Source: Candidatus Gottesmanbacteria bacterium
GTDB lineage: Bacteria; Patescibacteriota; Microgenomatia; 2-02-FULL-39-11
Direction of reading: 5' to 3'
NCBI GenBank assembly: GCA_016186795.1
Contig: JACPKY010000002.1
Location: 1,053,892 to 1,117,891 of the forward strand
DNA length: 64,000 bases
In this document: positions 20,723-64,000 of the stretch, piece after piece
Position numbering within the stretch: position 1 is the first letter of the stretch
Layout of the letters: each line of letters starts with the position of its first letter
The notes under the pieces: generated by a model
The model's input: the letters and a program-made list of their open reading frames with translations, nothing else
Told to the model about the DNA's origin: nothing
The model's database searches: none
Position numbers and translations under genes: made by a program

Positions 20723-20927
20723 GCTGACGGTGATTTCAACTCTACTCATGGAAATCAAGACTTAGTACACATCCAGCATGAAAAGGTCTCTCTATTAGAG
20801 GTGAAAAGAGGATGGAGAGACCTTCTCCAAGTAAATTTGTGAAGTGAAAGTAGAGAATATATATGTGGTTTGTTTCGGAGTGTAGGAAATTTCCTATTTT
20901 CCGATACTTACCACATATATAAAAATA

Positions 20928-25904: not shown

Positions 25905-25936
<32 letters not shown>

Positions 25937-26767: not shown

Positions 26768-26812
<45 letters not shown>

Positions 26813-27653
26813 CAGCTCACTGGACGAGAGGTCTTGCGCCGAAAATGAACGGGGATCAAGTCAAGTGCCGAAATTGGAGGTCTTATCGCAAGATAAGGCA
26901 GTAGAGGAGCGTTCCTATCGCAGTGAAGGTGTGCCGTAAGGCTAGCTGGAGTGATAGGAAGTGCGAATGTCGGTATGAGTAGCGTAATTTCGGTGAAAAT
27001 CCGAAGCGCCGTAAGCCCAAGGTTTCCGTCCCAACGTTGATCGGGGACGGGTAAGTCGGATCTAAGGCAAGTCCCGATTTAATCGGGAGTAGCTCGATGT
27101 AGAAGCCGTTGATATTCGGCTACAATGGAGAAAGGTTTCATAAGGGGAAGACGAAATTGGAGAGACAGATCCCGATTTAATCGGGACTAAGCCATAAGAT
27201 AGTAGTAACTGGAAAATCCGTTATTGCGTTTAATCAAGTGGTGATGGAGAGTCCAAAGAGCAATCTGCGGGCAATTCTGTACCTTTTCAGGTTCCAAGAA
27301 AACTCTCACTATGTTCTGGGGCGCAAGTCTCAGAAAACTTTCTTTATTTCCGTACCGCAAACCGACACAGGTGGGCTGGTAGAGTATACCAAGGCGATCG
27401 GGAGAAAATGGCTCAAGGAACTCGGCAAAACAGCTGGGCGTAACCTATGGGAGATGCCCTGCCTCACGAAAGTGGGGCCACAGCAAAAGACACTTACCAA
27501 CTGTTTAACTAAAACACAGGTCTCTGCAAAGCCGAAAGGCAACGTATAGGGGCTGACGCCTGCCCAGTGCACGTAGGTTAAGAATCATGGGTGACCCCGA
27601 TTTAATCGGGAAAGCTTGAGATTCAAGCCCGTGTGAACGGCAGCAGTAACTAT

Positions 27654-28243
27654 GAAACCGGAAATCCGGAGTTGTAGTTGTAAAATGTGACTATATGCTG
27701 GGACATCCCGTGTATCTGAACATACGAGAAAATATCAAAAATTAAATATCAAATATCAAAAATACATAGTAAAAATCAAATTTTTCGCGTAAAAAATGTT
27801 CAGTGGGGATAATCAGCAGGTAACCGCGCCAAAAATTTCATATTTAGGCGGGGGAATCCTCAGAGACCATAAGTCACATCCTAAATGATTTAGGAATGAT
27901 ATGGTCCGGACTCATGGGCGACCATGAGACTCTGTAAGCAATCAGAGTCCGCCAGTTGGCGGATAACAATTCGAACTGTTCTATGGTGAAACCTGAAAGA
28001 AGGTTCGCTGCCATAGTGAGGTGTAAACCCTCCGTTATGTGCGTATGCCGATACGCGCTAAAACGAAAACTTGACTATATGCTGGAAACACTCGTGTATC
28101 CAACGGTACCGCAATGAGGTAAAAATCTGTTTGGTGGAGTCAATCAGCAGGAAAGATCCCGATTAAATCGGGAAATCCTCAGAGACTATACGTCAGGATT
28201 CGCCTCAAGAGGCGAAATAAGATATAGTCCAAACTTCGAACAT
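27654..28243 (+). mobile_element. ORF-less group I intron insertion at the 23S position equivalent to E. coli U1917 (H69 loop), apparently with two tandem intron cores
   Basis: Insertion splits GTAACTAT | ...AGCGAAATTCC. P/Q/R/S-like elements occur twice: ATGCTGGGACA, AATCAGCAGG, CCTCAGAGACCATA, GATATGGTCC at 27690-27900, then ATGCTGGAAACA, AATCAGCAGG, CCTCAGAGACTATA, AAGATATAGTCC at 28070-28220. IGS GTAGTT can pair with the exon end AACTAT. The 3' end has a P9 hairpin before the exon. Confidence 0.6.
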
Positions 28244-28256
28244 ATCGAAGATTTAG

Positions 28257-28299
<43 letters not shown>

Positions 28300-28374
28300 A
28301 GAATGAGTAAGTGACTGTCTTGAGCCGTTGCCCGGCGAAATTGAAATGGCTGTGAAGATGCGGCCTACTTGCAC

Positions 28375-28405
<31 letters not shown>

Positions 28406-28762
28406 CAACTTGGCATTGAGAAGGCGTTTGAAACTGTCGAGTATAGGAGGGAGTCCCGCAAGGGACACAAGTGGAATACCTCTCTTTTCAAACGTTGACC
28501 CTTATCTCTTGGCCGCACAAATATCCGGCAGGGAGACAGTGTCTGGTGGGCAGTTTCGCTGGGGAGGTGGCCTCCAAAATCGTAACGGAGGCGTACATAA
28601 GGTTGGCTTAACACCAATGGAAACGGTGTTGTACGTGCAAACGCATAAGCCAGCTTCACTGCGAGACCTACAAGTCGAGCAGATGCGAAAGCAGGTGTTA
28701 GTGATCCTCGGATCCGCAGTGGTTGCGGACCGAGCTTAACGGATAAAAGCTACCCCGGGGAT

Positions 28763-29628
28763 ACATTCTGTGTCCCGTCCCGATAGTATATACTAATATC
28801 GGGACTTGGAACGGCTAATAACGGTGGAATCCAAAACTGTGGTAAGTTACGGTCTTTACTTACACGAGGCACAGTTTGGACAATACCGTGGGAAGTTAGG
28901 AAAATGAATAAACATAAACAATCGATTCTGACTGGAATGATTTTAGGAGATGCTTATTTACAGAAGACTGGAAAAAACAACGCGCGTATCCGACTTGAGC
29001 ATAGCGAAAAATCTAGAGATTATCTTCTCTGGAAAGGAGCTTGCTTTCCTGAATATTTTCAGGGAAAACCAAAAAGATACGTACGATTTAATCCGATCTT
29101 TAAAAAAACGTATATCTATCTGAGATGGCAATCATCTGCATCTCCTGAGATAGGCAAATTGCAGCGATTATTTTATATCGATCATAAAAAAATCATTCCC
29201 AAGGATCTCGATGAACTTTTGGTTGATCCAATTTCACTGGCTGTATGGTATCAAGATGATGGTTATTACTATAAACGAGACAAAATGGCTTATATTTATT
29301 TGCCCAGAATTTCTTCAGATGAGTTAAATGTATTGATGCATACACTACAGAAAAATTTTGGAATAAATCCAAGAGTAAAAGTGAAGAAAAGAGGAAATAG
29401 AGTCTTGGTATTTCCGGTTGAAGAGACAAAGAAATTATTTTCTCTCATTGAACCATATATTATACCTTCCATGAGGTATAAAATTTCCTAACCCCGTATC
29501 GACTGAGCATTAAGTTGCGAGGTCCCGATAAAGTATCGGGACAAGATGCCGTCTCCCTCACATACAAGTATGTGAGGGATGAAGATATAGTCAACGCCCC
29601 GATGTAAATCGGGGAAATATTATACGTG
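28763..29628 (+). mobile_element. Group I intron at the 23S position equivalent to E. coli U2449, carrying a LAGLIDADG homing endonuclease ORF
   Basis: Splits GGGGAT | AACAGGCTGAT. Ends with the omega G in ...TATACGTG. S element GAAGATATAGTC is near the 3' end. Several CCCGAT...ATCGGG hairpins are present. Confidence 0.7.
28904..29491 (+). CDS. LAGLIDADG-family homing endonuclease (intron-encoded)
   Basis: 195 aa inside the intron, same strand as the rRNA. LAGLIDADG-like motifs LTGMILGDAYL and AVWYQDDGYYY. Paralogous (about 35-40% identity by eye) to the ORF in the next intron. Confidence 0.7.
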   Translation: MNKHKQSILTGMILGDAYLQKTGKNNARIRLEHSEKSRDYLLWKGACFPEYFQGKPKRYVRFNPIFKKTYIYLRWQSSASPEIGKLQRLFYIDHKKIIPKDLDELLVDPISLAVWYQDDGYYYKRDKMAYIYLPRISSDELNVLMHTLQKNFGINPRVKVKKRGNRVLVFPVEETKKLFSLIEPYIIPSMRYKIS

Positions 29629-29647
29629 AACAGGCTGATCGCGTCCG

Positions 29648-29691
<44 letters not shown>

Positions 29692-29692
29692 T

Positions 29693-30536
29693 CTGCAAAG
29701 TGCAGAGTGGGCCCTTTGCCTAGTAATAGGCAAAAGCAAATTTGGCTCATAACGGTGGAGCCCTCTATATAACTTGATATAATTTATATATGGGTAATAC
29801 CGTAGGAAGTCGAGGAGTTTTAACTAGTAGACAAAGAGAAATTCTCGTTGGAACATTGCTGGGAGATGCGCACTTGGAGAAGAACGGAAGATATACTCGC
29901 TTACGTGTAGATCATTATGATAGACACAAAGAGTATATATTCTGGTTAGTCAATGAGTTTCTACCATTTTCTTTAAAACCTCGTCGAATTATTGAGGTCG
30001 ATAAAAGAAATGGGAAGACTTATACAAGATGGCATTTTTCCACAAAAAGTTTATCAAATTTTGATCCATTCAGAGAACTATTTTACTTTCAGGGAAGGAA
30101 AATTATTCCTTCTAACCTTGATCGTATAATTACACCTTTGTCTCTAGCTATTTGGTATATGGATGATGGATTTAAAAGACAGGATTCTAAAGGTTTCTAT
30201 CTTTGCACATCATCCTTTACGAGTGAAGAACAAAATATCTTGCAAAAATTATTGCATAAGCGCTTCAACCTGGATACCAAGATTCATCATCAACATGAAT
30301 TATCACGAATCTTTGTTCCTTCCGCGTATGCGGATGTATTTAATAATTTGGTTAAGCCATTTGTTCTTCCAATCTTTAGTTATAAACTCCTTTGACCCTC
30401 TAACGACTTCCCAATTTTATTGGGAGATTTTAACTATTTATTAGTTAGGATAATACGCCAAGCCCCCGCAGTCCGCCAGCTGGCGGATCGGGGTGATGGT
30501 ATAGTCTAACCCTTACGGAAACGTGAGATAAGGTTG
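29693..30536 (+). mobile_element. Group I intron near the 23S position equivalent to E. coli 2499-2500, carrying a second LAGLIDADG homing endonuclease ORF
   Basis: Splits GATGTCGGCTC | CATCCTATCCTGGGGCTGAAG. S-like element GATGGTATAGTC and an omega G precede the exon. Shares the GGCT(A/C)ATAACGGTGGA 5' segment with the neighbouring intron. Confidence 0.7.
29790..30395 (+). CDS. LAGLIDADG-family homing endonuclease (intron-encoded)
   Basis: 201 aa. Motifs LVGTLLGDAHL and AIWYMDDGF. Collinear with the ORF at 28904-29491. Confidence 0.7.
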   Translation: MGNTVGSRGVLTSRQREILVGTLLGDAHLEKNGRYTRLRVDHYDRHKEYIFWLVNEFLPFSLKPRRIIEVDKRNGKTYTRWHFSTKSLSNFDPFRELFYFQGRKIIPSNLDRIITPLSLAIWYMDDGFKRQDSKGFYLCTSSFTSEEQNILQKLLHKRFNLDTKIHHQHELSRIFVPSAYADVFNNLVKPFVLPIFSYKLL

Positions 30537-30629
30537 CATCCTATCCTGGGGCTGAAGAAGGTCCCAATGGTCCGGCTGTTCGCCGGTTAAAAGGGTACGC
30601 GAGCTGGGTTCAGAACGTCGTAAGACAGT

Positions 30630-30975
30630 AGACCTTAGTAGTTCGACACTACTATAATGAGCTGTCTTTCCTTCACCGTTTTGAACAATAAGAGAATTGA
30701 AGGAATCCTATAATATAAGTATTATAGGGATAAATTTGGCTAAATGCTGGAAACTCCGAGTATCTTGTGCTACCTTAATTTAATAAGAAAGGTAAAAATG
30801 CAACAAGTGCGGACAATTAGCAGGAAAGATCCCGATTAAATCGGGAAATCCTCAGAGACTATATGCCAGATGATGTACCGTATGGTGCGTCAAAGATATA
30901 GTCCGAACTGCATGGCGACATGCAGACCGTAGCAGAAATGTTTACGGCCACAAAGAAATTGTGAGTAACAAATTG
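30630..30975 (+). mobile_element. ORF-less group I intron at the 23S position equivalent to E. coli 2593
   Basis: Splits GTAAGACAGT | TCGGTCTCTATCC. P (AAATGCTGGAAAC), Q (AATTAGCAGG), R (CCTCAGAGACTATA) and S (AAGATATAGTCC) elements are all present. IGS CTGTCT pairs with the exon AGACAG. Confidence 0.65.
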
Positions 30976-31329
30976 TCGGTCTCTATCCGGTGCAAGCGTT
31001 GGATACTTGAGGGGAGCTCTTGCTAGTACGAGAGGACTGCGAGGGAGGAATCCCTGGTGAGCCAGTTGTTTCCCATTGGGAGCAAAGCTGGGTAGCTACA
31101 TTCCTACGGGATAAGCGCTGAAAGCATCTGAAGCGCCAAGCCCACCCCAAGATAAGGTATCCCTTTAGACCCCTTGTAGAATACAAGGTTGATAGGCGGA
31201 AAGTGTACACACGGCAACGTGCTTAGCTTATCCGTACTAATTGGTCGAGAGTAAATTTTAAGTCGCATAAGATGGAATAATCCTGTTCACTTTTTAGAGA
31301 GCATTTATACTCTAGGCACTTTTTGTACT

Positions 31330-31455
31330 TGAGCCTTTCGGTCTCTGAAGCTGGGTGGAACTACCTCTTTCCATTCCGAACAGAGTCGTCAAATACCCAA
31401 GCGCCGACGATAGTGATCCCGCAAGGGATTGCGAAAATAAGTCGAGGCCGGAGGA
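31330..31455 (+). rRNA. rrf: 5S rRNA
   Basis: Aligns by eye to the bacterial 5S core. GGTGGAACTACCTC..CCATTCCGAACAGAG..AGCGCCGACGATAGTG..GGGATTGCGA corresponds to GGTGGTCCCACCTGACCCCATGCCGAACTCAGAAG..AGCGCCGATGGTAGTG..AGAGTAGGGAACTGCC. The ends are approximate. Confidence 0.65.
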
Positions 31456-44535: not shown

Positions 44536-44774
44536 TTTTCTCAATGGATCTTCCCAATTTTTCGCAAAATAGGGTTCGTGGAAAGAGTCTGTATGCTGTA
44601 TTTCTCGGGAAATCCTTCGGAAATTACAGTTTCCGCTTTCCTTTTCGAAATACAGCAACATACTCTAATCCACCTGCACAAATTTTGTTCAAAAATGGGA
44701 AGATCCTCATTATTTGATACCTACACGGATTTTGTTCGAAAAGGTAGGAATGTATCGGAAGATTGGGGGTTAAA

Positions 44775-51173: not shown

Positions 51174-53228
51174 TTATAAAAAAAGAGATTTATATTCTTC
51201 CTTTGTGAGCAGCTTTTCTTTTTTATAGATTCGTATAACCGGGTGATCAAAGACAGTGTACGTTTCTTCGGCAGCTTCATCTGGAATTTCCAGAAAAATA
51301 GGTCCTATCCCAATAGTTGGATACGATGAAAATTCTTCTACCTTTTCAAATCCGAGTTTCCCCGTAAATAGTAGTTCATAGTAGCGTGTAACAAGAGGAT
51401 AAGAAGAATAAAGCCTGAGGTGGTTTGCAAAGATACGCCGGGAAGGGATAAAGATGTAATCGGCTTTTGAAAGATGGGTAATAAGCTGGTTAAATAGTTC
51501 GGGTGATTCATCCAGATGATAAAAGTCAAATGAGATAACCTCAAAATCCTTTTGCGGAACTATTCCTTTCGGCAGTCCAACCGGAATGTCAACCACATTT
51601 GCAGTTTCTGAGAGTACATAGGATTTATCCGGCAGAGTAGTCCAAATCCAGTACGAGGCAGAAATACGAGAGTCTGGTTGAGAGTATATGGACATGAATG
51701 CAATGCCGGGAAGAAAAGTCAAAATGCAAAGAACAAAAATGACATATTGTGTCATGGGATCTCTCGACTTCGCTCGGGATGACATTATGAGATAGGCTAT
51801 TCGATCTATATAATAGGCGGTAAACAGAGCAAAGAAGGGTAGAATCGGTGTCATAAACCGGGTCCACTTGGCAAAAAGAAAGGCGTTGGGTAAGAGATAA
51901 ACAAGAAATGAAATCACAACGATAATCCATCCAATCCTTCCAGTCGGGAATTTCAGTTCCCGCTTTCCTTTTCGGTATGCAGTAACAAACTCTAATCCAT
52001 CTGCATAAATGATACTCAATAGATTGGATTTCTTTTTGTGTTTTCTCTGAAGTTTGTTAAGTATTTTTGATAGTTTCTTAATAAGATAAGACAAAGTATC
52101 TACAAAAATGCTTAATACTAAGATTAAAAATCCAATCAAGCCGAGAATGAACACAGGCCAGCCGAGGGCATATGGGAATACTTTCTCTATCTGGAAAAGT
52201 ATTGGTATGGAATTGACGAACTGCCGTGTGTAGAAAGCCTGGTATGTACCGGTTGCGACAGCTTGCTCATATCCGAAAACTGAACCTAAGAAGTCTTTGT
52301 AGGCAACAATGTTATAGGGAGAGGAGATGATGAAAAAGAAGCTGCTACTAACAAAAAACAATGTAACAATGAAACAATAAAATAATGAAACAATGAATTG
52401 TTTTTTCCATAGAGAACGAATAAAGAGAATAAAAAGAGTAAAAAGGGGAGGAAAGAGGAAGAAAATCCCCGTGAGTTTACTGCCAAGAGCAATTCCGATG
52501 AGGAAACTTATGAAGAGAATAAACTGTATGAATTCTAGTGTTCGAGCTTGACGGGTTACCGGCTGGTACCCGTCTTGTCGAAAACTTCTCGACGAATAGA
52601 ATACGTCGTATTTGAGCATCTTGCATGAAAAATATACAATTCCCATAAAACAGAATGTAAGAAGTGACTCAGTTGTCCCGAAATGGGCCGATTGGATAAG
52701 AGCGGGAGTAAAGGCTACCAAAGCCGCAGTTAAAAGTGAAAAGTTTATAGTGAAAAGTTGACGGGCAAGATGATAGACAAAAATAACAGTCAAAGTTGAT
52801 GCAACGGCAGACCAAAAGCGGAGCCAAAATATAGCATAGTTAAAAGATGTTGCTCGGCTCTCTTGTGAAAGATATGGGTCAGCTTCATAGATAGGAAAAA
52901 GAGGTGGAGAGAGCGTCGATATGCTTCTATGGAGCTGGTCAGAGATATAGGAAAGATAAAGAGGAAACTGTCCGTAAGCGAAAAAGTGAGGATTGAGTGT
53001 GCAATTTCCTTCATTTGTTTCAGGAGCATTATTTTTGATTGTCGTAAATTCTTTCAAAAGACACTTGCCGATCTCAGGTGGTGTTGCGGGCAGACGAAAA
53101 CGGGTAATAGCTGCGGCCATATTGCGCTCGTCAGGATCAAAGAAATAAGGGGAATCGTGCATTAAACCGTAGAAACGTGTAAAAACTGTGAAGAAAAGAA
53201 TGGCAAAAAAGACGAAGTGACTTCTCAT
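51174..53228 (-). CDS. Polytopic membrane protein, putative GT-C glycosyltransferase
   Basis: 684 aa. N-terminal FTRFYGLMHDSPYFFDPDERN loop motif. Many TM helices and a C-terminal soluble domain. Last gene of the minus-strand operon beginning at 57111. Confidence 0.55.
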   Translation of the reverse strand: MRSHFVFFAILFFTVFTRFYGLMHDSPYFFDPDERNMAAAITRFRLPATPPEIGKCLLKEFTTIKNNAPETNEGNCTLNPHFFAYGQFPLYLSYISDQLHRSISTLSPPLFPIYEADPYLSQESRATSFNYAIFWLRFWSAVASTLTVIFVYHLARQLFTINFSLLTAALVAFTPALIQSAHFGTTESLLTFCFMGIVYFSCKMLKYDVFYSSRSFRQDGYQPVTRQARTLEFIQFILFISFLIGIALGSKLTGIFFLFPPLFTLFILFIRSLWKKQFIVSLFYCFIVTLFFVSSSFFFIISSPYNIVAYKDFLGSVFGYEQAVATGTYQAFYTRQFVNSIPILFQIEKVFPYALGWPVFILGLIGFLILVLSIFVDTLSYLIKKLSKILNKLQRKHKKKSNLLSIIYADGLEFVTAYRKGKRELKFPTGRIGWIIVVISFLVYLLPNAFLFAKWTRFMTPILPFFALFTAYYIDRIAYLIMSSRAKSRDPMTQYVIFVLCILTFLPGIAFMSIYSQPDSRISASYWIWTTLPDKSYVLSETANVVDIPVGLPKGIVPQKDFEVISFDFYHLDESPELFNQLITHLSKADYIFIPSRRIFANHLRLYSSYPLVTRYYELLFTGKLGFEKVEEFSSYPTIGIGPIFLEIPDEAAEETYTVFDHPVIRIYKKEKLLTKEEYKSLFL

Positions 53229-55276: not shown

Positions 55277-56689
55277 TTATTTGACTACATACTTTGCAAC
55301 CTCTTCTCCCATTTCTATTGCATAGTTTGTGCCTCGATCCCACGGATATACCATATCCATATTGGCTAAATACACGTGAGGGATAGGGGTATCAAATGGT
55401 GGTCGGATTTTGGAGTAGTTAAGGGGGAATACTGGTTGGGCGAAGGGACCCAAGAATAATTTACAATTTACTCCGCCAGCTGGCGGATGAAAATTAGGAT
55501 TAATTTTTATAAGATAGGGGAGGTAGGTTTCGAATATTTCTTTTGTAGACATTTTCAAATAGGGGTGGCCGGGCGGGAGGTAATTGGCAACCCACGCCAG
55601 GTGATTCCCACCGTAGTATTTCGGATCAATCATATTGGTTTGTTGAATAACTGCAATAAAGGGGAATGTCCGGTCATTTATATTGAGCCAGTATTCTTTG
55701 TCCAGAAATTTTTCTTTGGTAACAAGAAGAAGATTAAGGGCATGGAGATGGGGGATAGAGAGTAGATTTTTTGAATATTGTGCCCAACTTTTACTATTTT
55801 CCAGCGGGTCCTGCCGCTCGCGTATCCCATGAACTTGGTTCAGATCGCTCGCGAATTGAGTCAACTTGCTCCATAATCTCTTAGTCGCTCGCTCTCCCTT
55901 CGGTGAACCTCGCCATGGGAATCCCTCGCTTGCGTCACCCGCCAAATTTGAGATTTCTTTCTCAAACATCTTTACAAATACTACTGATGGGGTTGTGACA
56001 ATGACACAATCATATTTACTTATATCAGCAATATTAAATGTAGTATCTGTATAAATTTTCCCTCCATTTTTATTGATTTGAGAAGCAACAGCATCAACAA
56101 GTACTTTGTATCCGCCTTCAAGGTACCCAAGACGAAGAGTTCGTTTTTTTATTCTCGCCCAAAACCATGCCATGTTAATTAAAGAGGCATATTTCCCAAA
56201 TTTTCCCTTCAAAAGGGGCTCCCAGATGATTTTATACGCTTTTCCCCCATACAATTTTTGGGAAAAATCTATCGCCTTGTATTTCTCAAGATTTTGTCCT
56301 CCACTTTTTGAGAGCATTTTTAAATAAACTGTTGCCAAGCCAAATCTTACACGATCAACAATTGGTAGTGCAGAGAAAGAAAGTATCTGAGAAGGGGTAT
56401 TGAACGGGTACGATTTCCCACCGTAGTAAATCGATGTTAACGTCTTTGGGAAAATGAGTTTATCTTCAAGTCCAAGGTCTTTAATAAGACCTAGAGCCGC
56501 ATCATCATTCGTAAACCAGTGATGGTAGTGCTGTTCCACTTGCCACTTCCAGCTGGGAAGTTTGAAAGATCCAGCAAGACCTCCAAGAAACTTTTCCTTC
56601 TCAAAAAGAGATACCTGATTTCCGGATTTTGTGAGACTGTAAGCTGCAGAAAGTCCGGTAAATCCGCCACCGATGACTGCGATATTCAT
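55277..56689 (-). CDS. FAD/NAD(P)-binding oxidoreductase (amine-oxidase / CrtI / protoporphyrinogen-oxidase-like fold)
   Basis: N-terminal dinucleotide motif MNIAVIGGGFTGLSAAYSL and a GGKAYK-type second motif. 470 aa. Contains the tCCGCCAGCTGGCGGa palindrome in frame (HPPAGGVN). Confidence 0.65.
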   Translation of the reverse strand: MNIAVIGGGFTGLSAAYSLTKSGNQVSLFEKEKFLGGLAGSFKLPSWKWQVEQHYHHWFTNDDAALGLIKDLGLEDKLIFPKTLTSIYYGGKSYPFNTPSQILSFSALPIVDRVRFGLATVYLKMLSKSGGQNLEKYKAIDFSQKLYGGKAYKIIWEPLLKGKFGKYASLINMAWFWARIKKRTLRLGYLEGGYKVLVDAVASQINKNGGKIYTDTTFNIADISKYDCVIVTTPSVVFVKMFEKEISNLAGDASEGFPWRGSPKGERATKRLWSKLTQFASDLNQVHGIRERQDPLENSKSWAQYSKNLLSIPHLHALNLLLVTKEKFLDKEYWLNINDRTFPFIAVIQQTNMIDPKYYGGNHLAWVANYLPPGHPYLKMSTKEIFETYLPYLIKINPNFHPPAGGVNCKLFLGPFAQPVFPLNYSKIRPPFDTPIPHVYLANMDMVYPWDRGTNYAIEMGEEVAKYVVK

Positions 56690-57111
56690 TGTCCAAACTG
56701 GACTGAGGGAGAGTTCGCAATGGTGATGTTACTTCCTTGGTCAACTGCAGTAACTTGCGCTTTGCCCGAGATAGCCGATGAAAGCGTAAACTCTGCCATG
56801 CCGTTTTCATTGGTTGTAATCGTGTTTGAAGGGAGAATTGTGACGTTTGAGAGAGTACTTGAAAGGTTAACACCTCGATTGGCCATGACTTTGCCGCTTT
56901 CATCCCGAATATAGACGGTAACTTTTATATTTCCGTCAACTGGGACAATACCTCCGGTTGGGTAGTGGGCGATGACAAACGATTTTGTCGGTGATGGGAC
57001 TGTTGCACGTGCCTGAAAAATGCTTGTTGGTTGGACAGACAGAGCAACCATTGCTGCGGCAAAGAGGAAGAAAAAGAGGGCAGACAAAACCAGGAACTTT
57101 TTGTCTTTCAT
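56686..57111 (-). CDS. Small secreted protein with bacterial Ig-like (invasin/intimin-type) beta-sandwich domain
   Basis: Signal peptide MKDKKFLVLSALFFFLFAAAMVALSV (an alternative start 13 codons upstream gives MKTNAKIRSRS...), then an Ig-like pattern (VTVYIRDESGKVMANRGVNLS...AEFTLSS.ISG.A.VTA). Confidence 0.45.
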   Translation of the reverse strand: MKDKKFLVLSALFFFLFAAAMVALSVQPTSIFQARATVPSPTKSFVIAHYPTGGIVPVDGNIKVTVYIRDESGKVMANRGVNLSSTLSNVTILPSNTITTNENGMAEFTLSSAISGKAQVTAVDQGSNITIANSPSVQFGQ

Positions 57112-57190
57112 AGGAAGTGACCTTGACCGTATTTTTGCATTCGTTTTCATGTTTGTCAACTGGGGGTCAAAGATTATAATGATTATAGTC

Positions 57191-57715
57191 ATGACCGAAG
57201 GTTATAAATCACTTCCATTCTTCCAACAAGCGCAAGTAATATACGATTTTACGGTCGGTTTTTGTGAGCGATTCATCGATAAGAAATCCAGAACCACCGA
57301 CCAGATGACACAAGCTGCCCCATCCGGAAAGCAAAATATCGCCGAGGGGTACTTACAAAAGAGTACGGAGGGAAGACTGAAACTTCTGGGAGTGGCCAGA
57401 GGATCACTTGAAGAACTTTTGAATGATTATCTCGATTTTCTGAGGCAAAAAAGTCTTCCGCTGTGGTCGAAGGACTCAAGCGAGGCTCGAAAAGTGCGAA
57501 GCCTCGCATATAACAGTTATAAAAGTTATAACGATTATAAAAATTATATGGCAGCGCCAGAAGGTGCTGCAAACGCAATGGTTTGCCTGATCAATCAAAC
57601 CAATCAGCTTCTTGATCAGAAACTCCGGTGGATTGAACAGACGTTCATCCGAGAGGGCGGCTTCCGGGAGAATCTCTTCAAAAAGAGAAGAGCTTTCCTT
57701 GGGAAGGCGATATAA
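57191..57715 (+). CDS. Four-helix-bundle protein (PF05635-like; related to 23S IVS proteins and DGR Avd)
   Basis: Family signature pattern DQMTQAAPSGKQNIAEGY...LLGVARGSLEELLNDYLDF parallels Q.RRAA.SI.ANIAEG...ARGSL.EL of this family. Start taken at the internal ATG (MTEGYKSL). Confidence 0.65.
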   Translation: MTEGYKSLPFFQQAQVIYDFTVGFCERFIDKKSRTTDQMTQAAPSGKQNIAEGYLQKSTEGRLKLLGVARGSLEELLNDYLDFLRQKSLPLWSKDSSEARKVRSLAYNSYKSYNDYKNYMAAPEGAANAMVCLINQTNQLLDQKLRWIEQTFIREGGFRENLFKKRRAFLGKAI

Positions 57716-57827
57716 CAGTTATAAAAATTATACGATGACGCTCAAAATCTACACGAAGCATCATTCTCATAGGACCAATCAGCATGAAGAGAATTCTCTG
57801 AGAAAAATCTTCACTCGCCTCCGACGG

Positions 57828-60800
57828 ATGGAGAAACATCGGCTGTTTGCGATTTTCTTAGGAATACTTCTTGGGGCAACATCATTCTGGTGGATACCTC
57901 TTCTTCTTCCTAGAAAAACGGAGGCGGTGTGGTTTAACGACAATTGGGGATACAGACAAATTGTTGCAATAACCAATAGCGGGTCAAACCAAACAGATTA
58001 CCAGGTTGGAATAACTCTCGATACAGCAACACTTATCACTGCTGGAAAAATGCAAAGTGACTGCGACGATGTACGCGTGACTGATGTCAACGGGAAAGTC
58101 TTGCCTCATGTGATTGAAGAAGGTTCAGCTCCCTGCAACAATGCCTCAACTAAAATCTGGACAATGGTTCCATCGATTCCCACATCTGGTATCAATGTCT
58201 ATGTCTACTATGGGAACCCATCTGCAGTATCTGTTGAAAATGGAGGAGCTGTATTTACCTTTTTTGATAATTTTAATGGTACCACTATCGATGATGATGT
58301 CTGGACGCCAGAAAGTAATTTGGCTTATACAATATCTGGAGGAGTACTCGAGATTACCTCTGGGTCAATCTATTTAGACAACTCACTTGGTATCAGTTTC
58401 GCCGATGGCTATATTGCAGAAACCCGTCTTCTTTATGATGCAGTAGAAGGTGTTATGTACGGTGGCGTTCTTGAAGTTGCATCCTCCCAACAGGTTGCCA
58501 ATTCTAATGCAAATTCCGATGCTGCAATTCTATATATGAGAGATCAGAATTCGCAAAATGTTGTGACTTTTATTGCTGATGGTTCTGCAGCAAGCTGGAA
58601 CGTTCAATCTGGTCCGCTTCAGTTTGTCTCATCAGATAGCACTTATTATATTTTGGGAACTGGAGTGGGTTCAAGTAGCGTAAAGCTCTACAAAGATGGA
58701 TCGGTGCAAAATACCTATTCCTCAATAACCTGGTCAAAGACGATGAGCTATGTTTCTCTCGGTCGATTCACCACCGGGACAAACGTTTCGGATACAACCT
58801 ATGACTGGATACGGGTGAGAAAGTTTGCCGCAACTGAACCATCTGTTGGGTCTCCTTCAAGTGAGGAGAAAGGACCTGGGCCAATTGGGTATTGGAAATT
58901 GGATGAGGGCTATGGGACAACCGCAAATGATGGCACATCAAATAGTAACGAGGGGACACTGACCAATGGCCCGACGTGGGTGGCTGAGGATATGTGTGTG
59001 AGTGGAAAATGTTTGGAGTTTGATGGGAGCGATGATTACATTTTTGTTGGTGATCCAAGTGATGGAAGTCTTGATATGGGAACGGATGATTTCTCAATCA
59101 GCGGATGGCTTCGTACCGGAACAGATGCCTCACAAACCATTGTTGAAAAAGGCGCAACGAGTGATTCTATCGCTGGATACTGGTTTCTTTATGCAGCGGG
59201 AGCAGCAGCCGATGATCTTCAATTATCCATTGGAGACGGGGTAACTCGTGTGAATGCAGATTCAAAAAATGGACTAAATCTCACTGATAACAAATGGCAT
59301 CATTTTGCGGTAACTGCAGATAGAGACGGAGTTGCATCTTTTTATGTTGATGGACAAAATGTTGGCGATGAGGATATAAGCTCTTTTTCAGCTACGTCTA
59401 TCAGTACATCACGAAACCTCACAATCGGTAGAAATGCTACATTTACCCCTGATGGGTTTTTGGATGACGTAAAAATATACCGATATGTTCGAACCCGTGC
59501 TCAAGTAAAAGCAGATTATGCAGCAGGAAAGGCTGGGATTGGTCTTGCCAAACCTGCCGCTGGAGTCCTTGGGGCAGATAGTGATCAAAAAAATCAAACA
59601 CTTTCCCAGGGACTCGTCGGGTATTGGAAGATGGATGAGTCTGTCTGGACTCCCGTTAACTGTTCTGGGACCCCTGTTTTAGATTCTTCAGGAAATAGTC
59701 ATAACGGTCGCAGTTGTCCTGATACCACTGGGCCAACGGGAGGGGCTGTCGGCAAGTTTGGATACGCAGGTGATTTTGATGGCACAGAAGATTTTATCCG
59801 CGTCCCTGAAACTACTGCTCTTGATATCTCTGGGGCCATGACTGTTGCTGCATGGATCAAATTTGATACAAGTCAACTTCAGGGAATTATTTCTCATGAA
59901 GGTAATAGTTTAAATAACGGTTATGCACTTGATATGACTTCTGGTAATGTTGCGAGATTTCATATTTCAGATGCTGATAACGTCCAGTATTATTCAGGAG
60001 ACAGCCAAGCCCTTTCCACTGGTACGTGGTATCATATTGTCGGTGTTTATATTCCCTCTGTTGCAGTGCAAATCTATGTCAATGGAGCGCTGGTAAACCA
60101 AAATACCACCTCAATACCATCTACTCAGAGAGTTTCTACGTTGCTTTTTACTGAAATTGCAATAAGAGGGAATGAGCAGGATTTTTTTGACGGAAAAATT
60201 GATGAAGCTCGAATTTATAACCGTGCATTTCAACCCTCAGAAGTCTCCCTCCTTTACAACTTCGCCCCCGGGCCGGTGGGGTATTGGAAGATGGAAGAAG
60301 GAAGTGGAACAACAGCAAATGATACATCTGGAAACGCAAATACAGGCACGTTACAAGACTCTACTACCTGGTCTGCAGGGAAATACGGCAAGTCACTTAC
60401 GTTTGATGCTAGTGGTGATTATGTAAAAGTAGATGATAGTACATCGCTAGATATAACAGGGACAATAACAATGGAAGCGTGGGTAAATAGGGGGTCTTTG
60501 GCTGTGGGAAACTTTCCTCTGGCAATTACAAAAGAAAATTATGCCGGAGGATCCGGGTATTTACTGGGTGATTATCACGCAGGGAACGATCTCATGGGTT
60601 GCCGGATTAACGGTAATACTGATACCACCAATGGATTACTTCAGGAATCAACAGCTACCTATAACGAGTGGGTACATTATGCGTGCACGTTTGATGGAAC
60701 AACGATCAGTCTCTATAAAAACGGTATCCTTTTGGGTACAAAGACTCCTTCATTTTCGACGATAACGGCTAATAATGAACAATTAAGAATAGGCCCAAGT

Positions 60801-63617
60801 TATTCTGGGTATTTGGATGAAGCAAAAGTTTATAACTATGCCCGTACTCAGAAACAAATCATTGAAGATATGAATGCGGGACATCCAGCTGTTGGAAGTC
60901 CTGTGGGAAGTGCGGTTGGGTATTGGAAGCTTGATGAAGGACAGGGAACAACTGCGAATAATTCTGGAAATCAAGGATCTGCTCTTAATGGAACACTCAT
61001 CAATATGGCTTCTCCTGCAACGGCAACATCAGGATGGACCAATACCGGGAAATTTGCAAAAGCTCTTGTGTTTGATGGAAGTAATGATTATGTCAACCTT
61101 GGGCAACCAACAGCATTAAATCTTACTGAAAATATGACTGTTTCTGCATGGTTTACCACGAATGACCTAACAACATTGGCATTTGTGTATGCACAGTGCG
61201 ATAGTTCTGGAACCGGCGGGCAAATATTTATCGATATTGGGAGAACTGATAATGAGATTACTGTGGGATGGGGCAATACTGTTATTGATACAACTACAGT
61301 CGGGTTACAATCAAACAGATGGTACCATCTTGCTGTAGTTCGAACAGGTGTTTCTGGGAATTGGATGAGTCAGATATATATTAACGGACTCCTCAATAAA
61401 CAAAAGACGTCTATTTCAACGGATCCAGGGAGCATCCTTGATAACCATATTGGGTCATGTCAAAATACGTCGACCAATTGGGAAGGAAAGATTGATGAGG
61501 TGAAAGTGTATAACTATGCTTTAACGAGCGATGAGGTAAAACTCGACTACAATAGAAGTGCAGCAACGGTTTTAGGTACAACAACTGATGATCAAACAGC
61601 GTTTTCACTCACTCAAGGACTTGTTGGGTACTGGAAATTTGATGAGAGCTCAGGCGATGCCTCAGACTCTTCAGGAAACGCAACTACCCTTACCAATACA
61701 AATAGTGCTACCTATACAGCCGGAAAGTATTATAAAGCCGGCACAGCAGCTTCTTCCACAGATGCATGTTTTTCTGCAGCATCGAATTCGTATCTTGCCT
61801 CGGGTGGAAACAAAGATTACACTATTTCTTTCTGGTCTGTACGTACAGCAAACCCCGCCTCTGATAGATTTGTGGCGGCAAAATCAGACAAGGGAACTAA
61901 CGGCTCAACGAGCTGGGAGTGGTATTTCGTGGAAAATAATCTTTCTGGACCTGGATTCGTAGTCTCACCTGACGGGACTCTTGCAAGTGTTAGTTCTGTT
62001 GGCACAAACACCATAACATTAAATACATGGTTTTTTACTGTTGCTTGGTATGATAGTAAAGCTGGAACGATCAACATTCAATATGATAATGGTCCAGTAC
62101 AATCAACCGCCTTCACTTCCGGAATTTACAATGGTACTAATAACTTTACCGTTGGTTGCATCCAAAATGTGAGCTCTGTAATGCGCGCAATTGATGGAAA
62201 GGTAGATGAGTTTCGTATTTACAAACGAGTTCTATCTCCTTCTGAACGAGCCTATCTTTACACGTCGTCCATTCAAAATCTTGTTGCCGAGTGGAAACTG
62301 GATGAGGGAACAGGGACAACAGCCTATGATACCAGCGGTCAGGAAAGTACAAGTAAAAATTTCAAAGGAAATCTCGACTGGACTGGGGGAAAATTCGGAA
62401 GCAGTATGAACTTCCTTGGCAGTAATAGTGAATATATAGGATTTTCTGATGCGACTGCATTTGATCTTGGTGCTACAACCGAATCGTATAGTGTCTCGGC
62501 CTGGATGAAAACAACCACCAACTTCTCTGCTAATGCCCATCTTGTTGCGAAATATGATGGAGGAGCAGCATATCCATTCATTTTATACCTAAACACAAGT
62601 GAGCAAGCATGTTTTACCCTCCGTGGGACAAATAATCCTATTGCCTGTGGTTCAACGGCGCTAAATGACGGAAATTGGCATAATCTTGTGGGAGTACGCG
62701 ATGTAGTTGCAGATACGATTTATACCTATGTGGATGGAATTCTGGCAACAAGTACGACTGATACTACAACGGCAACAGCAGCAAATAACGCAAGTCTTAC
62801 TATTGGAAATGGAGGGACGTCATACACAACATTTGATTATACAGGACAAATTGACCAGGTCCAGATTTATAATTTGGCATTGACACAGTATCAAATTTCA
62901 CAGATATATAACCGGGGAGGGCCTATCGGTTGGTGGAAGTTTGATGAGTGTGAAGGGACAACCGCGAATGATTCTTCAGGAAATGGGAATAATGGGACAA
63001 TTGTTCCTGGTTCCTCGGGAACTACAGCTGTCGGGAATTGTCAAACATCCGCAACATCTATGTGGTATGACGGCAGAATTGGGAAACGTAACTCCTCTCT
63101 CGATTTTGACGGGACAGACGATTATGTCATGATTGGAACGGTATCTATGTATGAGTTAACAACGGCTTCATTTACTGCATGGATCTATCGAGAAGGAACC
63201 TGTTCATTTGATGATTGTGTCATTGTTGGGAACGGTCCTGGAGGAAACACAGGGTACACACTTGATATCGCGAGTGAATCTGGTCCTCCATACGTTTTGC
63301 GTATGGACATTCGCGATCTTCAAAAGGTGTATGGGAAGACCACTCTGGCAACCAATACATGGTATCATGTGGCAGGATCGTTTGATGGATCGTATATCCG
63401 CTTGTGGGTCAATGGTAAGCTTGAGACAATAGCTGCCCAAACGCAAACCCCTACCTATGCAAACCCGACAAAGATAGGTCTTGGTAACAGCGATATTCCC
63501 TTTAATGGGGATATTGATGACGTACGGATTTATAACTATGTCCTAACTGATGATCAAGTTATGGCCATTATGAATGAAGGAGCAGTTCGGTGGGGGCCGA
63601 TTTCGGGAACGCCTTGA
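57828..63617 (+). CDS. Giant (1929 aa) cell-surface protein: signal anchor, N-terminal DUF2341-like domain, then seven LamG_3 (concanavalin A-like lectin) repeats
   Basis: Start at MEKHRLFAIFLGILLGATSFWW (signal anchor). DUF2341-like region W.Y...I...N......Y....L....L......DCDDVRVTD..G..LPH..E.....N...IW..VP.I......YVYYGNP. Seven repeats of about 215-245 aa, each beginning GYWK(L/M/F)DE.G.T..D.SGN...G.L and ending with a (K/R)(I/V)YN motif, at DNA positions about 58882, 59622, 60272, 60910, 61624, 62290, 62928. Confidence 0.8.
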   Translation: MEKHRLFAIFLGILLGATSFWWIPLLLPRKTEAVWFNDNWGYRQIVAITNSGSNQTDYQVGITLDTATLITAGKMQSDCDDVRVTDVNGKVLPHVIEEGSAPCNNASTKIWTMVPSIPTSGINVYVYYGNPSAVSVENGGAVFTFFDNFNGTTIDDDVWTPESNLAYTISGGVLEITSGSIYLDNSLGISFADGYIAETRLLYDAVEGVMYGGVLEVASSQQVANSNANSDAAILYMRDQNSQNVVTFIADGSAASWNVQSGPLQFVSSDSTYYILGTGVGSSSVKLYKDGSVQNTYSSITWSKTMSYVSLGRFTTGTNVSDTTYDWIRVRKFAATEPSVGSPSSEEKGPGPIGYWKLDEGYGTTANDGTSNSNEGTLTNGPTWVAEDMCVSGKCLEFDGSDDYIFVGDPSDGSLDMGTDDFSISGWLRTGTDASQTIVEKGATSDSIAGYWFLYAAGAAADDLQLSIGDGVTRVNADSKNGLNLTDNKWHHFAVTADRDGVASFYVDGQNVGDEDISSFSATSISTSRNLTIGRNATFTPDGFLDDVKIYRYVRTRAQVKADYAAGKAGIGLAKPAAGVLGADSDQKNQTLSQGLVGYWKMDESVWTPVNCSGTPVLDSSGNSHNGRSCPDTTGPTGGAVGKFGYAGDFDGTEDFIRVPETTALDISGAMTVAAWIKFDTSQLQGIISHEGNSLNNGYALDMTSGNVARFHISDADNVQYYSGDSQALSTGTWYHIVGVYIPSVAVQIYVNGALVNQNTTSIPSTQRVSTLLFTEIAIRGNEQDFFDGKIDEARIYNRAFQPSEVSLLYNFAPGPVGYWKMEEGSGTTANDTSGNANTGTLQDSTTWSAGKYGKSLTFDASGDYVKVDDSTSLDITGTITMEAWVNRGSLAVGNFPLAITKENYAGGSGYLLGDYHAGNDLMGCRINGNTDTTNGLLQESTATYNEWVHYACTFDGTTISLYKNGILLGTKTPSFSTITANNEQLRIGPSYSGYLDEAKVYNYARTQKQIIEDMNAGHPAVGSPVGSAVGYWKLDEGQGTTANNSGNQGSALNGTLINMASPATATSGWTNTGKFAKALVFDGSNDYVNLGQPTALNLTENMTVSAWFTTNDLTTLAFVYAQCDSSGTGGQIFIDIGRTDNEITVGWGNTVIDTTTVGLQSNRWYHLAVVRTGVSGNWMSQIYINGLLNKQKTSISTDPGSILDNHIGSCQNTSTNWEGKIDEVKVYNYALTSDEVKLDYNRSAATVLGTTTDDQTAFSLTQGLVGYWKFDESSGDASDSSGNATTLTNTNSATYTAGKYYKAGTAASSTDACFSAASNSYLASGGNKDYTISFWSVRTANPASDRFVAAKSDKGTNGSTSWEWYFVENNLSGPGFVVSPDGTLASVSSVGTNTITLNTWFFTVAWYDSKAGTINIQYDNGPVQSTAFTSGIYNGTNNFTVGCIQNVSSVMRAIDGKVDEFRIYKRVLSPSERAYLYTSSIQNLVAEWKLDEGTGTTAYDTSGQESTSKNFKGNLDWTGGKFGSSMNFLGSNSEYIGFSDATAFDLGATTESYSVSAWMKTTTNFSANAHLVAKYDGGAAYPFILYLNTSEQACFTLRGTNNPIACGSTALNDGNWHNLVGVRDVVADTIYTYVDGILATSTTDTTTATAANNASLTIGNGGTSYTTFDYTGQIDQVQIYNLALTQYQISQIYNRGGPIGWWKFDECEGTTANDSSGNGNNGTIVPGSSGTTAVGNCQTSATSMWYDGRIGKRNSSLDFDGTDDYVMIGTVSMYELTTASFTAWIYREGTCSFDDCVIVGNGPGGNTGYTLDIASESGPPYVLRMDIRDLQKVYGKTTLATNTWYHVAGSFDGSYIRLWVNGKLETIAAQTQTPTYANPTKIGLGNSDIPFNGDIDDVRIYNYVLTDDQVMAIMNEGAVRWGPISGTP

Positions 63618-63655: not shown

Positions 63656-64000
63656 ATGGAGACGAAAAGTGAGAATCTTACCCCCAAAATACCCCTCCAC
63701 ATACTGTTAGGAATTTTTGCTCTTCTGAGTATAAATATCGCTTTTGTTGCTTTCTTGCTATCTAAATCAGAAAGGTTCAATCTCTTCACGCTTGCAAATG
63801 AAACGATCAAACAGTATGACGGCTTACTTGTTGAGATCGAAGGAGGACGATGTGAGGGTACCGAAAAAACTATTTGCCACAGGCTTGTCTATGAAAACGA
63901 TTATAAACGGGTCGTTAGTGTCGGAGCTGAAACAAGAACTATTCGATCGGAATTGAAAAGCGCCGCGGGTAGTGGGAAAAGAGTAACAATACGAGGAATA
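63656..64000 (+). CDS. Partial ORF (5' end) running off the window: membrane-anchored hypothetical protein
   Basis: ATG at 63656. The frame is open to the window end (115 codons). N-terminal TM IPLHILLGIFALLSINIAFVAFLL. Not in the ORF track because no stop lies within the window. Confidence 0.3.
   Translation, partial: METKSENLTPKIPLHILLGIFALLSINIAFVAFLLSKSERFNLFTLANETIKQYDGLLVEIEGGRCEGTEKTICHRLVYENDYKRVVSVGAETRTIRSELKSAAGSGKRVTIRGI

Follow-up and report, generated by a model that had tools for sequence, protein, structure and literature searches.

In the 64-kb stretch of DNA analysed here (the window), a lectin-repeat surface-protein gene and a TIGR04258 four-helix-bundle (4HB) suffix cassette appear to lie side by side as two separate units, their adjacency most likely being positional; we put the probability of this reading at about 65%. 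The giant protein is predicted to be an ordinary membrane-anchored lectin-repeat surface protein, and the 4HB gene is a self-contained, widely scattered cassette, flanked and split by arrays of 9-base repeats, and no diversity-generating cofactor. The gene order of the initial annotation, with a four-helix-bundle gene at 57191-57715 directly before the giant ORF and both on the plus strand, was confirmed by the ORFs and by family matches. Its placing of the host among the CPR bacteria also held, with 100% identity between the 4HB protein and one of Ca. Gottesmanbacteria at NCBI.

The gene for the predicted giant surface protein and its surroundings

The giant gene runs from bp 57828-63617 (+) and encodes 1929 aa; a possible earlier ATG at 57735 would give 1960 aa. 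An identical 1929-aa product is predicted on two Logan contigs. Pfam matches and a hydrophobic N-terminal segment bore out the architecture first proposed for this ORF, i.e. an anchor, an N-terminal DUF2341 domain and seven LamG_3 domains. The transmembrane/signal-anchor helix (57831-57905, +) comprises aa 2-26, which are also helical in the AF2 model, and includes the hydrophobic stretch LFAIFLGILLGATSFWWIPLLL. The DUF2341 beta-sandwich is located at 58059-58307 (+; Pfam aa 78-160), with a score of 70.9 bits against a cut-off of 23.4, and the pLDDT of the model exceeds 90 across aa 41-100 and 111-150. At 58320-58847 (+; approximately aa 165-340), Foldseek identified a divergent ConA-like/GH16-like jelly-roll domain, for which the matches were structures with the GH16 and laminarinase folds (E = 3e-6, prob 1.0, TM ~0.45); it is modelled with low confidence at aa 206-269. 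An ExDxxE catalytic motif was not seen on inspection by eye. The seven tandem Laminin_G_3 domains (58887-63614, +) start at 58887, 59619, 60279, 60918, 61626, 62286 and 62928 and score 479.9 bits in seven stretches (cut-off 27.6). Repeats of about 220 aa with a conserved opener had been described; seven openers of the form [GAV][YEW]W[KE][LMF][DE]E were found (aa 354, 598, 818, 1031, 1267, 1487 and 1701), with units of 213-244 aa. Pairwise identity between the repeats is 20-38% for protein and 39-49% for DNA, and by their sequences they are old, diverged duplications without ongoing hypermutation.

The giant protein is most likely an N-terminally membrane-anchored extracellular rod of about nine beta-sandwich modules, namely DUF2341, one ConA-like domain and seven LamG_3 domains. 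Its exposure at the surface is predicted from the transmembrane anchor and the lectin-type folds. From its domain families, its most likely ligands are glycans of a partner cell or a matrix, and the same families agree with the earlier description of a membrane-anchored, multi-LamG, lectin-like surface protein. The same order of transmembrane segment, DUF2341, ConA-like and LamG_3 domains is found in the DUF2341/Laminin_G_3 surface proteins of Patescibacteria (annotated as 'DUF2341 domain-containing protein' at NCBI), among which the copy in the window has seven LamG_3 domains and 1929 aa. The DUF2341 homologues, all with PF10102, are 34-56% identical to it over the N-terminal 353 aa, and no full-length relative above 60% identity was found. 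TafC, a minor subunit of haloarchaeal Tat-fimbriae (NF052521; PMC11821415), was also considered. The giant protein scored 256.7 bits against NF052521, summed over 6 LamG stretches and below the equivalog cut-off of 410 bits. On this score, the repeated matching of one LamG domain and the bacterial host, a TafC identity was rejected; no TafA or TafE homologue was found among the annotated window genes.

The giant gene ends an envelope-glycosylation cluster of ~20 kb, with DUF2298, GT1/GT4, PMT-like glycosyltransferase, GT2, PA14, UbiA, acyltransferase and Big_1 families. The left border, outside the feature under study, is a divergent Big_1/Invasin_D3 gene (56686-57192, -; 168 aa, Pfam Big_1 42.4 bits), which heads a Big_1/FAD-oxidase/acyltransferase operon. 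The conserved operon is present at 23 metagenome loci, and at none of them does a 4HB or LamG gene adjoin it. On the other side, the next gene starts 39 nt past the giant stop (63656-64000 in the window, +). Its product, complete on contig L002, has 627 aa and an N-terminal transmembrane anchor; a family search gave no match, and NEP and SEIGD motifs were noticed by eye only. The 4.8 kb past the giant stop (~4.4 kb past the window end) hold the genes for this protein, Rho and a LysM-M23 protein.

The four-helix-bundle protein and the absence of a retroelement

The 4HB-suffix gene (57191-57715, +) encodes 174 aa, or 178 aa from the NCBI start at ATG 57179. The protein belongs to PF05635 (35.2 bits, cut-off 33.8), to TIGR02436 (35.8 bits, cut-off 24) and to TIGR04258 4helix_suffix (54.1 bits, cut-off 40), the last through aa 123-167 and profile positions 1-45 of 49. 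It consists of bundle helices 1-3, a Tyr-rich linker, and a long helix 4 with a C-terminal helix (the 'suffix'). Its AF2 model is helical (pLDDT 86.8), and the best Foldseek matches of the model were 2gsc (XCC0516) and 2rld (BT_0352), both at prob 1.0 and TM 0.6-0.7. A PDB profile search gave 2gsc as the sole match (E = 0.003), with the common motif QNIAEG...ARGSLEEL. Unlike these two non-DGR proteins of PF05635/TIGR02436, the 4HB protein has a Tyr-rich insertion of ~35 residues between helices 3 and 4 and the extra C-terminal helix of TIGR04258. Proteins of this non-DGR group go by the label '23S rRNA intervening sequence protein', whereas the 4HB gene lies outside any rRNA gene; the 23S introns of the window carry LAGLIDADG ORFs. 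The PADLOC defence-system models gave no match to the 4HB protein at E <= 0.01.

Diversity-generating retroelements (DGRs) are common in CPR, and their variable regions are usually located in a C-type-lectin or Ig fold. The 4HB protein could in principle be an Avd that works with a distant reverse transcriptase (RT) and template repeat to diversify a LamG repeat, which we consider highly improbable. The fold is indeed common to both (4dwl: prob 0.9, TM 0.71), and Avd, a four-helix bundle, resembles the PF05635 family (PMC10053308). However, in the comparison with Avd suggested by the initial annotation, 4dwl ranked 40th with 10% identity, behind the non-DGR structures 2gsc and 2rld, and Avd lacks the linker and the suffix. 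That annotation had also reported neither RT nor template repeat within the window and held a DGR to be unsupported, in agreement with the six-frame motif search, the family scan and self-BLAST. In six frames of the 64 kb no RT-like ORF with Y[x]DD was present, the sole YMDD being that of a LAGLIDADG intron ORF. RVT families were absent from the scanned ORFs of at least 150 aa (all but one, which is antisense within 23S rRNA). Neither an RT nor a template repeat/variable repeat pair was found in the 57 kb upstream of the 4HB/giant pair or, once the search was extended past position 64000 as had been advised, in the 4.8 kb past the giant stop. The 64 kb contain no long near-identical repeat: those that involve the giant gene reach at most 61 nt and 79% identity, and a 67-nt pair with 85% identity elsewhere in the window (51944 and 44617) has mixed mismatches. 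The adenine-specific variation that had been proposed for comparison is absent from the LamG repeats, in which mismatches are distributed over all four bases. The seventh Laminin_G_3 domain forms the C-terminus of the giant protein (aa 1701-1929), where only ConA-like families match, not the fold usual for a DGR target. In addition, the 4HB-suffix subfamily adjoins housekeeping genes in ~80 loci, and RT families are absent among the 25 most frequent families of each set of immediate neighbours. Because RT and template repeat are absent nearby, the PDB profile search finds 2gsc alone and 4dwl ranks 40th, the identification of the 4HB protein as Avd was rejected.

Nonamer arrays and the distribution of the cassette

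The 4HB-suffix gene is accompanied by three arrays of a nonamer. The degenerate 5' array (57174-57188) has 2 units (TTATAATGA TTATAG) directly before ATG 57191, and a relaxed nonamer pattern matches it at 57175. The internal array (57508-57548, +) has 4 units of TTATAANNN and encodes the Tyr-rich linker YNSYKSYNDYKNY. The 3' array (57710-57733) has 2-3 units, the first TATAA of which includes the TAA stop of the 4HB gene. A 23-nt direct repeat reported earlier does exist, with boundaries other than those first given: its exact extent is 57508-57530 and 57710-57732 (22/23 identical), and its first copy is part of the 9-nt tandem array at 57508-57548. That it joins the two ORFs, as had been thought, is not supported; it represents the internal and 3' arrays, two of the three that are characteristic of the 4HB-suffix family as a whole.

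The repeat is far beyond chance, since TATAA-N4-TATAA occurs in the 64-kb window solely at 57509, 57518, 57527 and 57711; in 548 kb of related loci it was counted 462 times, versus 5.1 expected from shuffles. In 767 kb of control CPR loci the nonamer motif had 1 match. Tandem TTATAANNN nonamers are located upstream of the start in 50/53 loci, in the linker in 52/53 and at or after the stop in 27/51, the 3' array being absent from about half of the cassettes. The 5' array of other CPR loci has 3-7 units (50/53). The linker Tyr residues are invariant and their codon is TAT in 258/261 cases, versus 181/251 at other conserved Tyr positions (p = 1.6e-20). Non-CPR homologues have a different nonamer, of the ATAGGTCCC or TATAAGACC type, in both linker and flanks. 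Solo arrays of the same nonamer occur at other intergenic sites, directly before the start codons of other genes.

More than 2000 relatives of the 4HB protein were found, of which the best 120 are 71-80% identical and span Gottesman-, Davies-, Levy- and Woesebacteria and Minisyncoccia. Upstream of the 4HB genes, 53 Pfam families were counted at 71 loci, the most frequent being ATP DNA ligase (13) and Tmk (10); on the downstream side there were 50 families at 64 loci, with sortase (11) the most frequent. ArgRS and tRNA-Arg are also among the neighbours, and in 16 loci tRNA-Arg(CCT) follows the 3' array. Of the ArgRS loci, L170 has the cassette, the syntenic L171 is empty and without array, L172 has a solo array without 4HB gene, and L173 and L174 are empty. 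With arrays that are family-wide, neighbours that are diverse and ArgRS loci that have the cassette, lack it or keep a solo array, the pairing in the window is most likely positional.

The cassette is ordered as 5' array, bundle helices 1-3, internal array, helix 4 with suffix, and 3' array, and would be gained and lost as one unit in intergenic spots beside unrelated genes. This putative mobility is deduced from presence/absence and from the high identity across classes. A transposase, integrase or target-site duplication was not found, and no 4HB-suffix copies were found in viral contigs. REP/RAYT systems, in which a single gene is flanked by short repeats associated with it, offer an analogy: here too a conserved small gene is bracketed by short-repeat arrays, solo arrays occur elsewhere and the repeat co-varies with the gene lineage. 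In contrast to REP/RAYT, the protein is no transposase, the repeats are 9-nt head-to-tail tandems and not hairpin REPs, and one array lies inside the coding sequence.

Links between the 4HB gene and the giant gene

The initial annotation had considered that the 4HB protein might serve the giant protein as a chaperone or variability cofactor, which the analysis does not support. Locus L035 makes a loose link conceivable, because this homologous locus repeats the arrangement, with a 4HB gene followed by a giant gene of the type TM-DUF2341-like-LamG; its product is 33% identical to that of the window over the repeats and has a near-identical inter-repeat segment. All three LamG ORFs in ~800 kb of 4HB flanks directly adjoin the 4HB gene (nominal p = 0.007), so that a non-random association of some kind with LamG genes or giant surface genes is possible. 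A role of the 4HB-suffix protein as a chaperone or assembly factor dedicated to giant surface proteins of the LamG type would be in line with this, with LamG genes beside 4HB genes in the window, L035, L084 and L020, and other giant ORFs in L035, L047 and L060. However, over 90% of the 4HB-suffix genes have no LamG neighbour and they adjoin dozens of unrelated genes, no 4HB gene lies upstream of the four DUF2341 homologues that were looked up as the closest, and the 4HB protein lacks a signal peptide, its predicted location being the cytosol. Order and orientation vary as well: the LamG gene lies upstream of the 4HB gene in L084 and L020, but downstream of it in the window and in L035. The counts are low, and variable regions may simply be where both giant genes and inserted cassettes tend to lie. 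We therefore regard a dedicated partnership as improbable.

The arrays may have a promoter role, as their sequence suggests. They would be tandem boxes resembling the -10 type, placed for leaderless or short-leader starts, on which the 4HB protein may act. Typically the 3' array abuts the start codon of the following gene, which in the window is ATG 57735 of the giant ORF. A rival view goes further: the 3' array would be the promoter of the giant gene with a leaderless start at ATG 57735, and the 4HB-suffix protein would bind the arrays and therefore control the giant gene as well as its own. The 3' array ends 1 nt ahead of this in-frame ATG and 5 nt ahead of the giant ATG in L035, in 5 loci the ArgRS start codon is embedded in the last 3' array unit, and the solo arrays are likewise placed directly before start codons. 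In L166 and L167, short tandem TATAAT boxes are found ahead of genes, the internal array is constrained at the DNA level, and the 5' array overlaps a sigma-70-like promoter match (57153-57180, +; TTGTCA-16-TATAAT, 11/12 matches, a consensus match only), whose -10 box is the first unit of this array. However, gene callers place the start of the giant protein at 57828 and not at 57735, no -35 element is reported for the 3' array, and about half of the cassettes lack this array. Nor is any DNA-binding motif recognised in the 4HB fold; what its relatives (Avd) bind is RT and RNA. Such coupled regulation of the two genes is, in our view, unlikely.

Somewhat better odds, still short of even, can be given to a broader proposal: the 4HB-suffix gene and its three arrays would form an undescribed small intergenic cassette in CPR and other phyla, with arrays that work as nucleotide sequence, serving as tandem -10-like starts and/or recombination sites, and are recognised by the 4HB-suffix protein. 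The array sequence may then co-evolve with the gene, as TTATAANNN in CPR and as the ATAGGTCCC and TATAAGACC types in Planctomycetota, Verrucomicrobiota and Doudnabacteria. If this proposal is true, the gene could be inserted or lost through recombination between arrays, with solo arrays as remnants, and in the window the giant surface-protein gene would owe its start site to the cassette.

A giant lectin-repeat surface protein

The gene call for the giant ORF (57828-63617, + strand, 1929 aa) is the same on two Logan contigs. The initial annotation described a protein with an anchor, a DUF2341 domain and seven LamG repeats behind the four-helix-bundle (4HB) gene, and this was confirmed: Pfam identified a DUF2341 domain (70.9 bits) and seven Laminin_G_3 stretches (479.9 bits) after a hydrophobic N-terminus, in agreement with seven GYWKxDE-type openers at aa 354, 598, 818, 1031, 1267, 1487 and 1701. 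Codon-aligned, the seven repeats are 20-38% identical in protein and 39-49% in DNA. A model of aa 1-353 (pLDDT 74) consists of a TM helix (aa 2-26) and two beta domains. DUF2341 is modelled confidently as a beta-sandwich; the second jelly-roll (approximately aa 145-335) matched GH16 and ConA-like folds in Foldseek (E = 3e-6), and no GH16 catalytic motif was seen in it. The protein lacks a C-terminal sorting signal and is therefore probably held by its N-terminal helix, with some nine beta-sandwich modules outside the cell. The domain families point to glycan or host binding.

The N-terminal part has its homologues among DUF2341 and DUF2341-LamG proteins (34-56% identity). Most of these come from Patescibacteria, and most are fragments lying at contig ends. 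Membership of TafC, a subunit of the haloarchaeal Tat-fimbria (PMC11821415), was rejected, as its 256.7 bits, against a cut-off of 410, come from adding up LamG matches. The giant protein is a further example of the already known giant lectin-repeat surface proteins of CPR bacteria.

The giant gene lies at the end of an envelope cluster of approximately 20 kb, which comprises genes for DUF2298, GT1/GT4, an FkbM methyltransferase, PMT-like glycosyltransferases, GT2, a PA14 protein, UbiA, an acyltransferase, an FAD oxidase and a Big_1 protein. At 63656, 39 nt past its stop codon, starts a gene whose product (627 aa) carries a TM anchor at its N-terminus; the gene is complete on the Logan contig L002 (L002:6101-7984), and the product had no match in Pfam, NCBIfam, PADLOC or PDB. 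By eye only, its NEP and SEIGD motifs hint at a clan GH-A-like glycosidase.

Elsewhere in the window, the rRNA operon (25654-31453) follows a tRNA-Ala(TGC) gene at 25225, with the 23S rRNA match at 25654-28861 and the 5S gene at 31337. It contains two group I introns (28035-28250 and 30673-30925) and two LAGLIDADG_2 ORFs (28904-29491 and 29790-30395). Intron ORFs probably interrupt the 23S gene further, and no 4HB gene lies within it.

The four-helix-bundle protein and the question of a retroelement

The conserved part of the 4HB ORF (+ strand) runs from the ATG at 57191 to 57715 (174 aa); the NCBI entry, a 'four helix bundle protein' of Candidatus Gottesmanbacteria, starts at the ATG at 57179 and has 178 aa. 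The protein scored 35.2 bits with PF05635, 35.8 bits with TIGR02436 and 54.1 bits, over aa 123-167, with TIGR04258 ('four helix bundle suffix'), of which it is a member. It has over 2000 relatives, and the top 120, at 71-80% identity, are spread over many CPR classes. In the AF2 model a Tyr-rich linker connects bundle helix 3 with a long helix (123-154), and the TIGR04258 'suffix' is therefore, as modelled, largely a displaced fourth helix. Residue 44 (57320-57322) is Pro, in place of the Arg (QAARSGKQNIAEG motif) present in at least 90% of close homologues. Membership of a defence system was considered and dropped, as PADLOC gave no match. In the literature, PF05635 proteins are described as uncharacterised and Avd-like (PMC10053308), and are now and then encoded within CPR rRNA insertions.

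The family relationship with Avd, the accessory protein of diversity-generating retroelements (DGRs), held up in kind and less so in closeness. The 4HB profile matched only 2gsc in PDB (E = 0.003), and the nearest structures to the AlphaFold model (pLDDT 86.8) were 2gsc and 2rld, both non-DGR PF05635 proteins, whereas Avd (4dwl) ranked 40th with 10% identity. Judged from the model, the fold relationship is real yet distant.

The initial annotation saw no reverse transcriptase (RT) or template repeat in the window, and six-frame, Pfam and self-BLAST searches all bore this out. A six-frame scan of the 64 kb for RT motif 5 yielded nothing RT-like, the only YMDD lying inside a LAGLIDADG intron ORF. 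Among the window ORFs of at least 150 aa (excepting one antisense within the 23S rRNA) Pfam identified no RT; housekeeping, rRNA operon and envelope genes were found instead. Self-BLAST of the window revealed no template/variable-type repeat. The longest self-matches within the giant gene (54-61 nt, 77-79% identity) lie at the conserved repeat openers. A 67-nt direct repeat (51944-52010 and 44617-44683, 85% identical) was rejected as a template/variable pair, since its mismatches are mixed and not adenine-specific; one copy lies in a PMT-like gene and the other is intergenic. Two imperfect palindromes were also noted (44546-44706, approximately 160 nt, and 20858-20921, 64 nt).

DGR parts past position 64000 and adenine-specific variation among the seven repeats had been raised as possibilities, and neither was found. 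Contig L002 reaches 4.8 kb beyond the giant gene stop, or about 4.4 kb beyond the end of the window, and encodes there the 627-aa protein, a 52-aa ORF, Rho and a LysM/M23 peptidase, with no RT. Mismatches between the codon-aligned repeats fall on all four bases. The DGR reading of the locus is not supported. The giant protein is useful as a candidate for host attachment or matrix binding and does not represent a diversification system. A caution for annotators is that 'Avd-like' neighbours of large CPR surface proteins are usually not DGR parts.

Neighbours of the four-helix-bundle gene

The 4HB protein had also been proposed as a chaperone or variability cofactor of the giant protein. Flanking genes were called in 80 genome loci of 4HB relatives and scanned with Pfam. 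Upstream neighbours belonged to 53 families, including ATP-dependent DNA ligase (13), thymidylate kinase (10) and NDK (3), and downstream neighbours to 50 families, including sortase (11) and ArgRS (3). In one homologous locus the ligase upstream of the 4HB gene (L023:1379-4138) has an intein with a LAGLIDADG_3 domain.

Conversely, a 4HB gene was found nowhere on the contigs of the four closest placeable DUF2341 homologues, which have integrase-SAM-like genes upstream in two cases, DUF3800 in one and unknowns in one. The small genes with phage-integrase SAM-like N-terminal domains that precede the closest DUF2341 homologues (L166:348-848 and L167:160-633) have 2-3 tandem TATAAT boxes upstream. 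Neither the giant gene nor an adjacent 4HB gene was present in 23 relatives of the neighbouring Big_1/oxidase operon. The FAD oxidase relatives, at most 53% identical, keep the Big_1 operon without either gene, so no clean empty site for the window locus was obtained among them.

Given the diverse 4HB neighbours and the DUF2341 and Big_1 relatives without 4HB, the pairing is not a conserved module, and the cofactor proposal is not supported. An HMM built from the seven LamG repeats detected only three LamG ORFs in all surveyed 4HB loci, and all three directly adjoin a 4HB gene (nominal p = 0.007): in L035 the 4HB gene precedes a TM-DUF2341-like-LamG giant 33% identical to that of the window, in L084 it follows a 705-aa LamG protein and in L020 a LamG fragment. 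Giant ORFs that had no Pfam match (1336 to more than 2300 aa) lie directly upstream of 4HB-suffix genes in L035:94-6948, L047:1-6924 and L060:2899-6909. Some non-random link of 4HB genes with LamG or giant surface genes may therefore exist.

Nonamer arrays and cassette states

The direct repeat reported at this locus is real (22/23 identical), with its copies now placed at 57508-57530 and 57710-57732; the first lies within a 9-nt tandem array. It was taken for a joint between the two ORFs and is instead part of arrays found family-wide with the 4HB-suffix gene, which together form a cassette. In 53 CPR loci, TATAA-N4-TATAA occurred 462 times (5.1 expected from shuffles), 382 of these at three fixed gene-relative places: a 5' array of 3-7 units 20-70 nt upstream of the start (50/53 loci), an internal array in the linker at +312 to +336 (52/53) and a 3' array at or after the stop codon (27/51). 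A control of 767 kb of other CPR loci contained one occurrence, and within the 64-kb window the pattern is confined to the 4HB gene. The 5' array begins where the upstream gene ends (or, if that gene is divergent, where it starts) and in most cases extends into the ATG; the 4HB gene often stops at the TAA of the first 3' unit.

The linker encodes an invariant YxxYxxYxxYxxY. Its Tyr codons are TAT in 258/261 cases, versus 181/251 at other conserved Tyr positions (p = 1.6e-20), and constraint therefore acts on the nucleotides as well. Homologues outside CPR have another nonamer, of the ATAGGTCCC or TATAAGACC type, in linker and flanks alike. Both types were seen in the linker and within 100 nt on either side in L073, L081, L082, L084 and L085 (non-CPR and Doudnabacteria), where the linker reads RSYxTYRTY; coding and flanking repeats thus co-vary. 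A reading of TTATAANNN as a DnaA box was dropped because it agrees with TTATCCACA at only about 5/9 positions and the cumulative GC skew is monotonic. Full-text searches, including TTATAA with CPR, found no description of the arrays.

The window 5' array (57174-57188) is degenerate and overlaps a sigma-70-like promoter match (11/12) at its -10 box. With this array, a short 3' array and the Pro at aa 44, the window cassette may be an ageing copy. Three independent Logan contigs (L002, L003 and L004) end in or just past the internal array (window 57520-57556), which suggests assembly ambiguity or copy-number variation in the population.

The 3' array is followed by tRNA-Arg(CCT) in 16 loci (L008, L015, L016, L025, L030-L033, L038-L040, L046, L049, L053, L054 and L056). 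In five others (L011, L012, L018, L024 and L044), and in L170, its last unit contains the ArgRS ATG. These two distinct arginine-related neighbours may reflect inherited synteny or be meaningful. The distance from the 3' array to the giant-gene ATG is 1 nt in the window (ATG 57735, a possible start ahead of the called one at 57828) and 5 nt in L035.

In some genomes solo arrays immediately precede the start codons of other genes. They were seen at intergenic junctions in L032:5697-6354, L025, L031, L033, L039, L040, L047:10634-11571, L041:8485 and L010:13564, often abutting the starts of consecutive genes of approximately 195 aa adjoining Tmk. At the ArgRS site, the full cassette is present in L170. 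In L171, which is syntenic with it, both 4HB gene and array are missing, and L173 and L174 are likewise empty (approximately 2400-2500 in all three), whereas L172 lacks the 4HB gene but has a solo TTATAANNN array (2471-2500) with the ArgRS ATG embedded. Judging by these states, the cassette is gained or lost whole, and a solo array can stay behind. A further TATAA nonamer array (four occurrences) lies within the ArgRS coding region at L170:4088-4128. No transposase or integrase for the cassette was found, and a scan of IMG/VR with two peptide patterns gave no match in viral contigs. The arrays may serve as promoters or leaderless starts, and may recombine with one another.

The direct repeat in the window is a small, visible part of a conserved architecture of three arrays, and this is the most interesting point of the locus. 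PF05635/TIGR04258 genes rank among the commonest unexplained small genes of CPR and other genomes, and Avd is to our knowledge the sole characterised relative of the family. Three 9-nt tandem arrays, strictly arranged at the nucleotide level, together with the presence, absence and solo-array states of the cassette at one chromosomal site, provide a concrete handle on this family.
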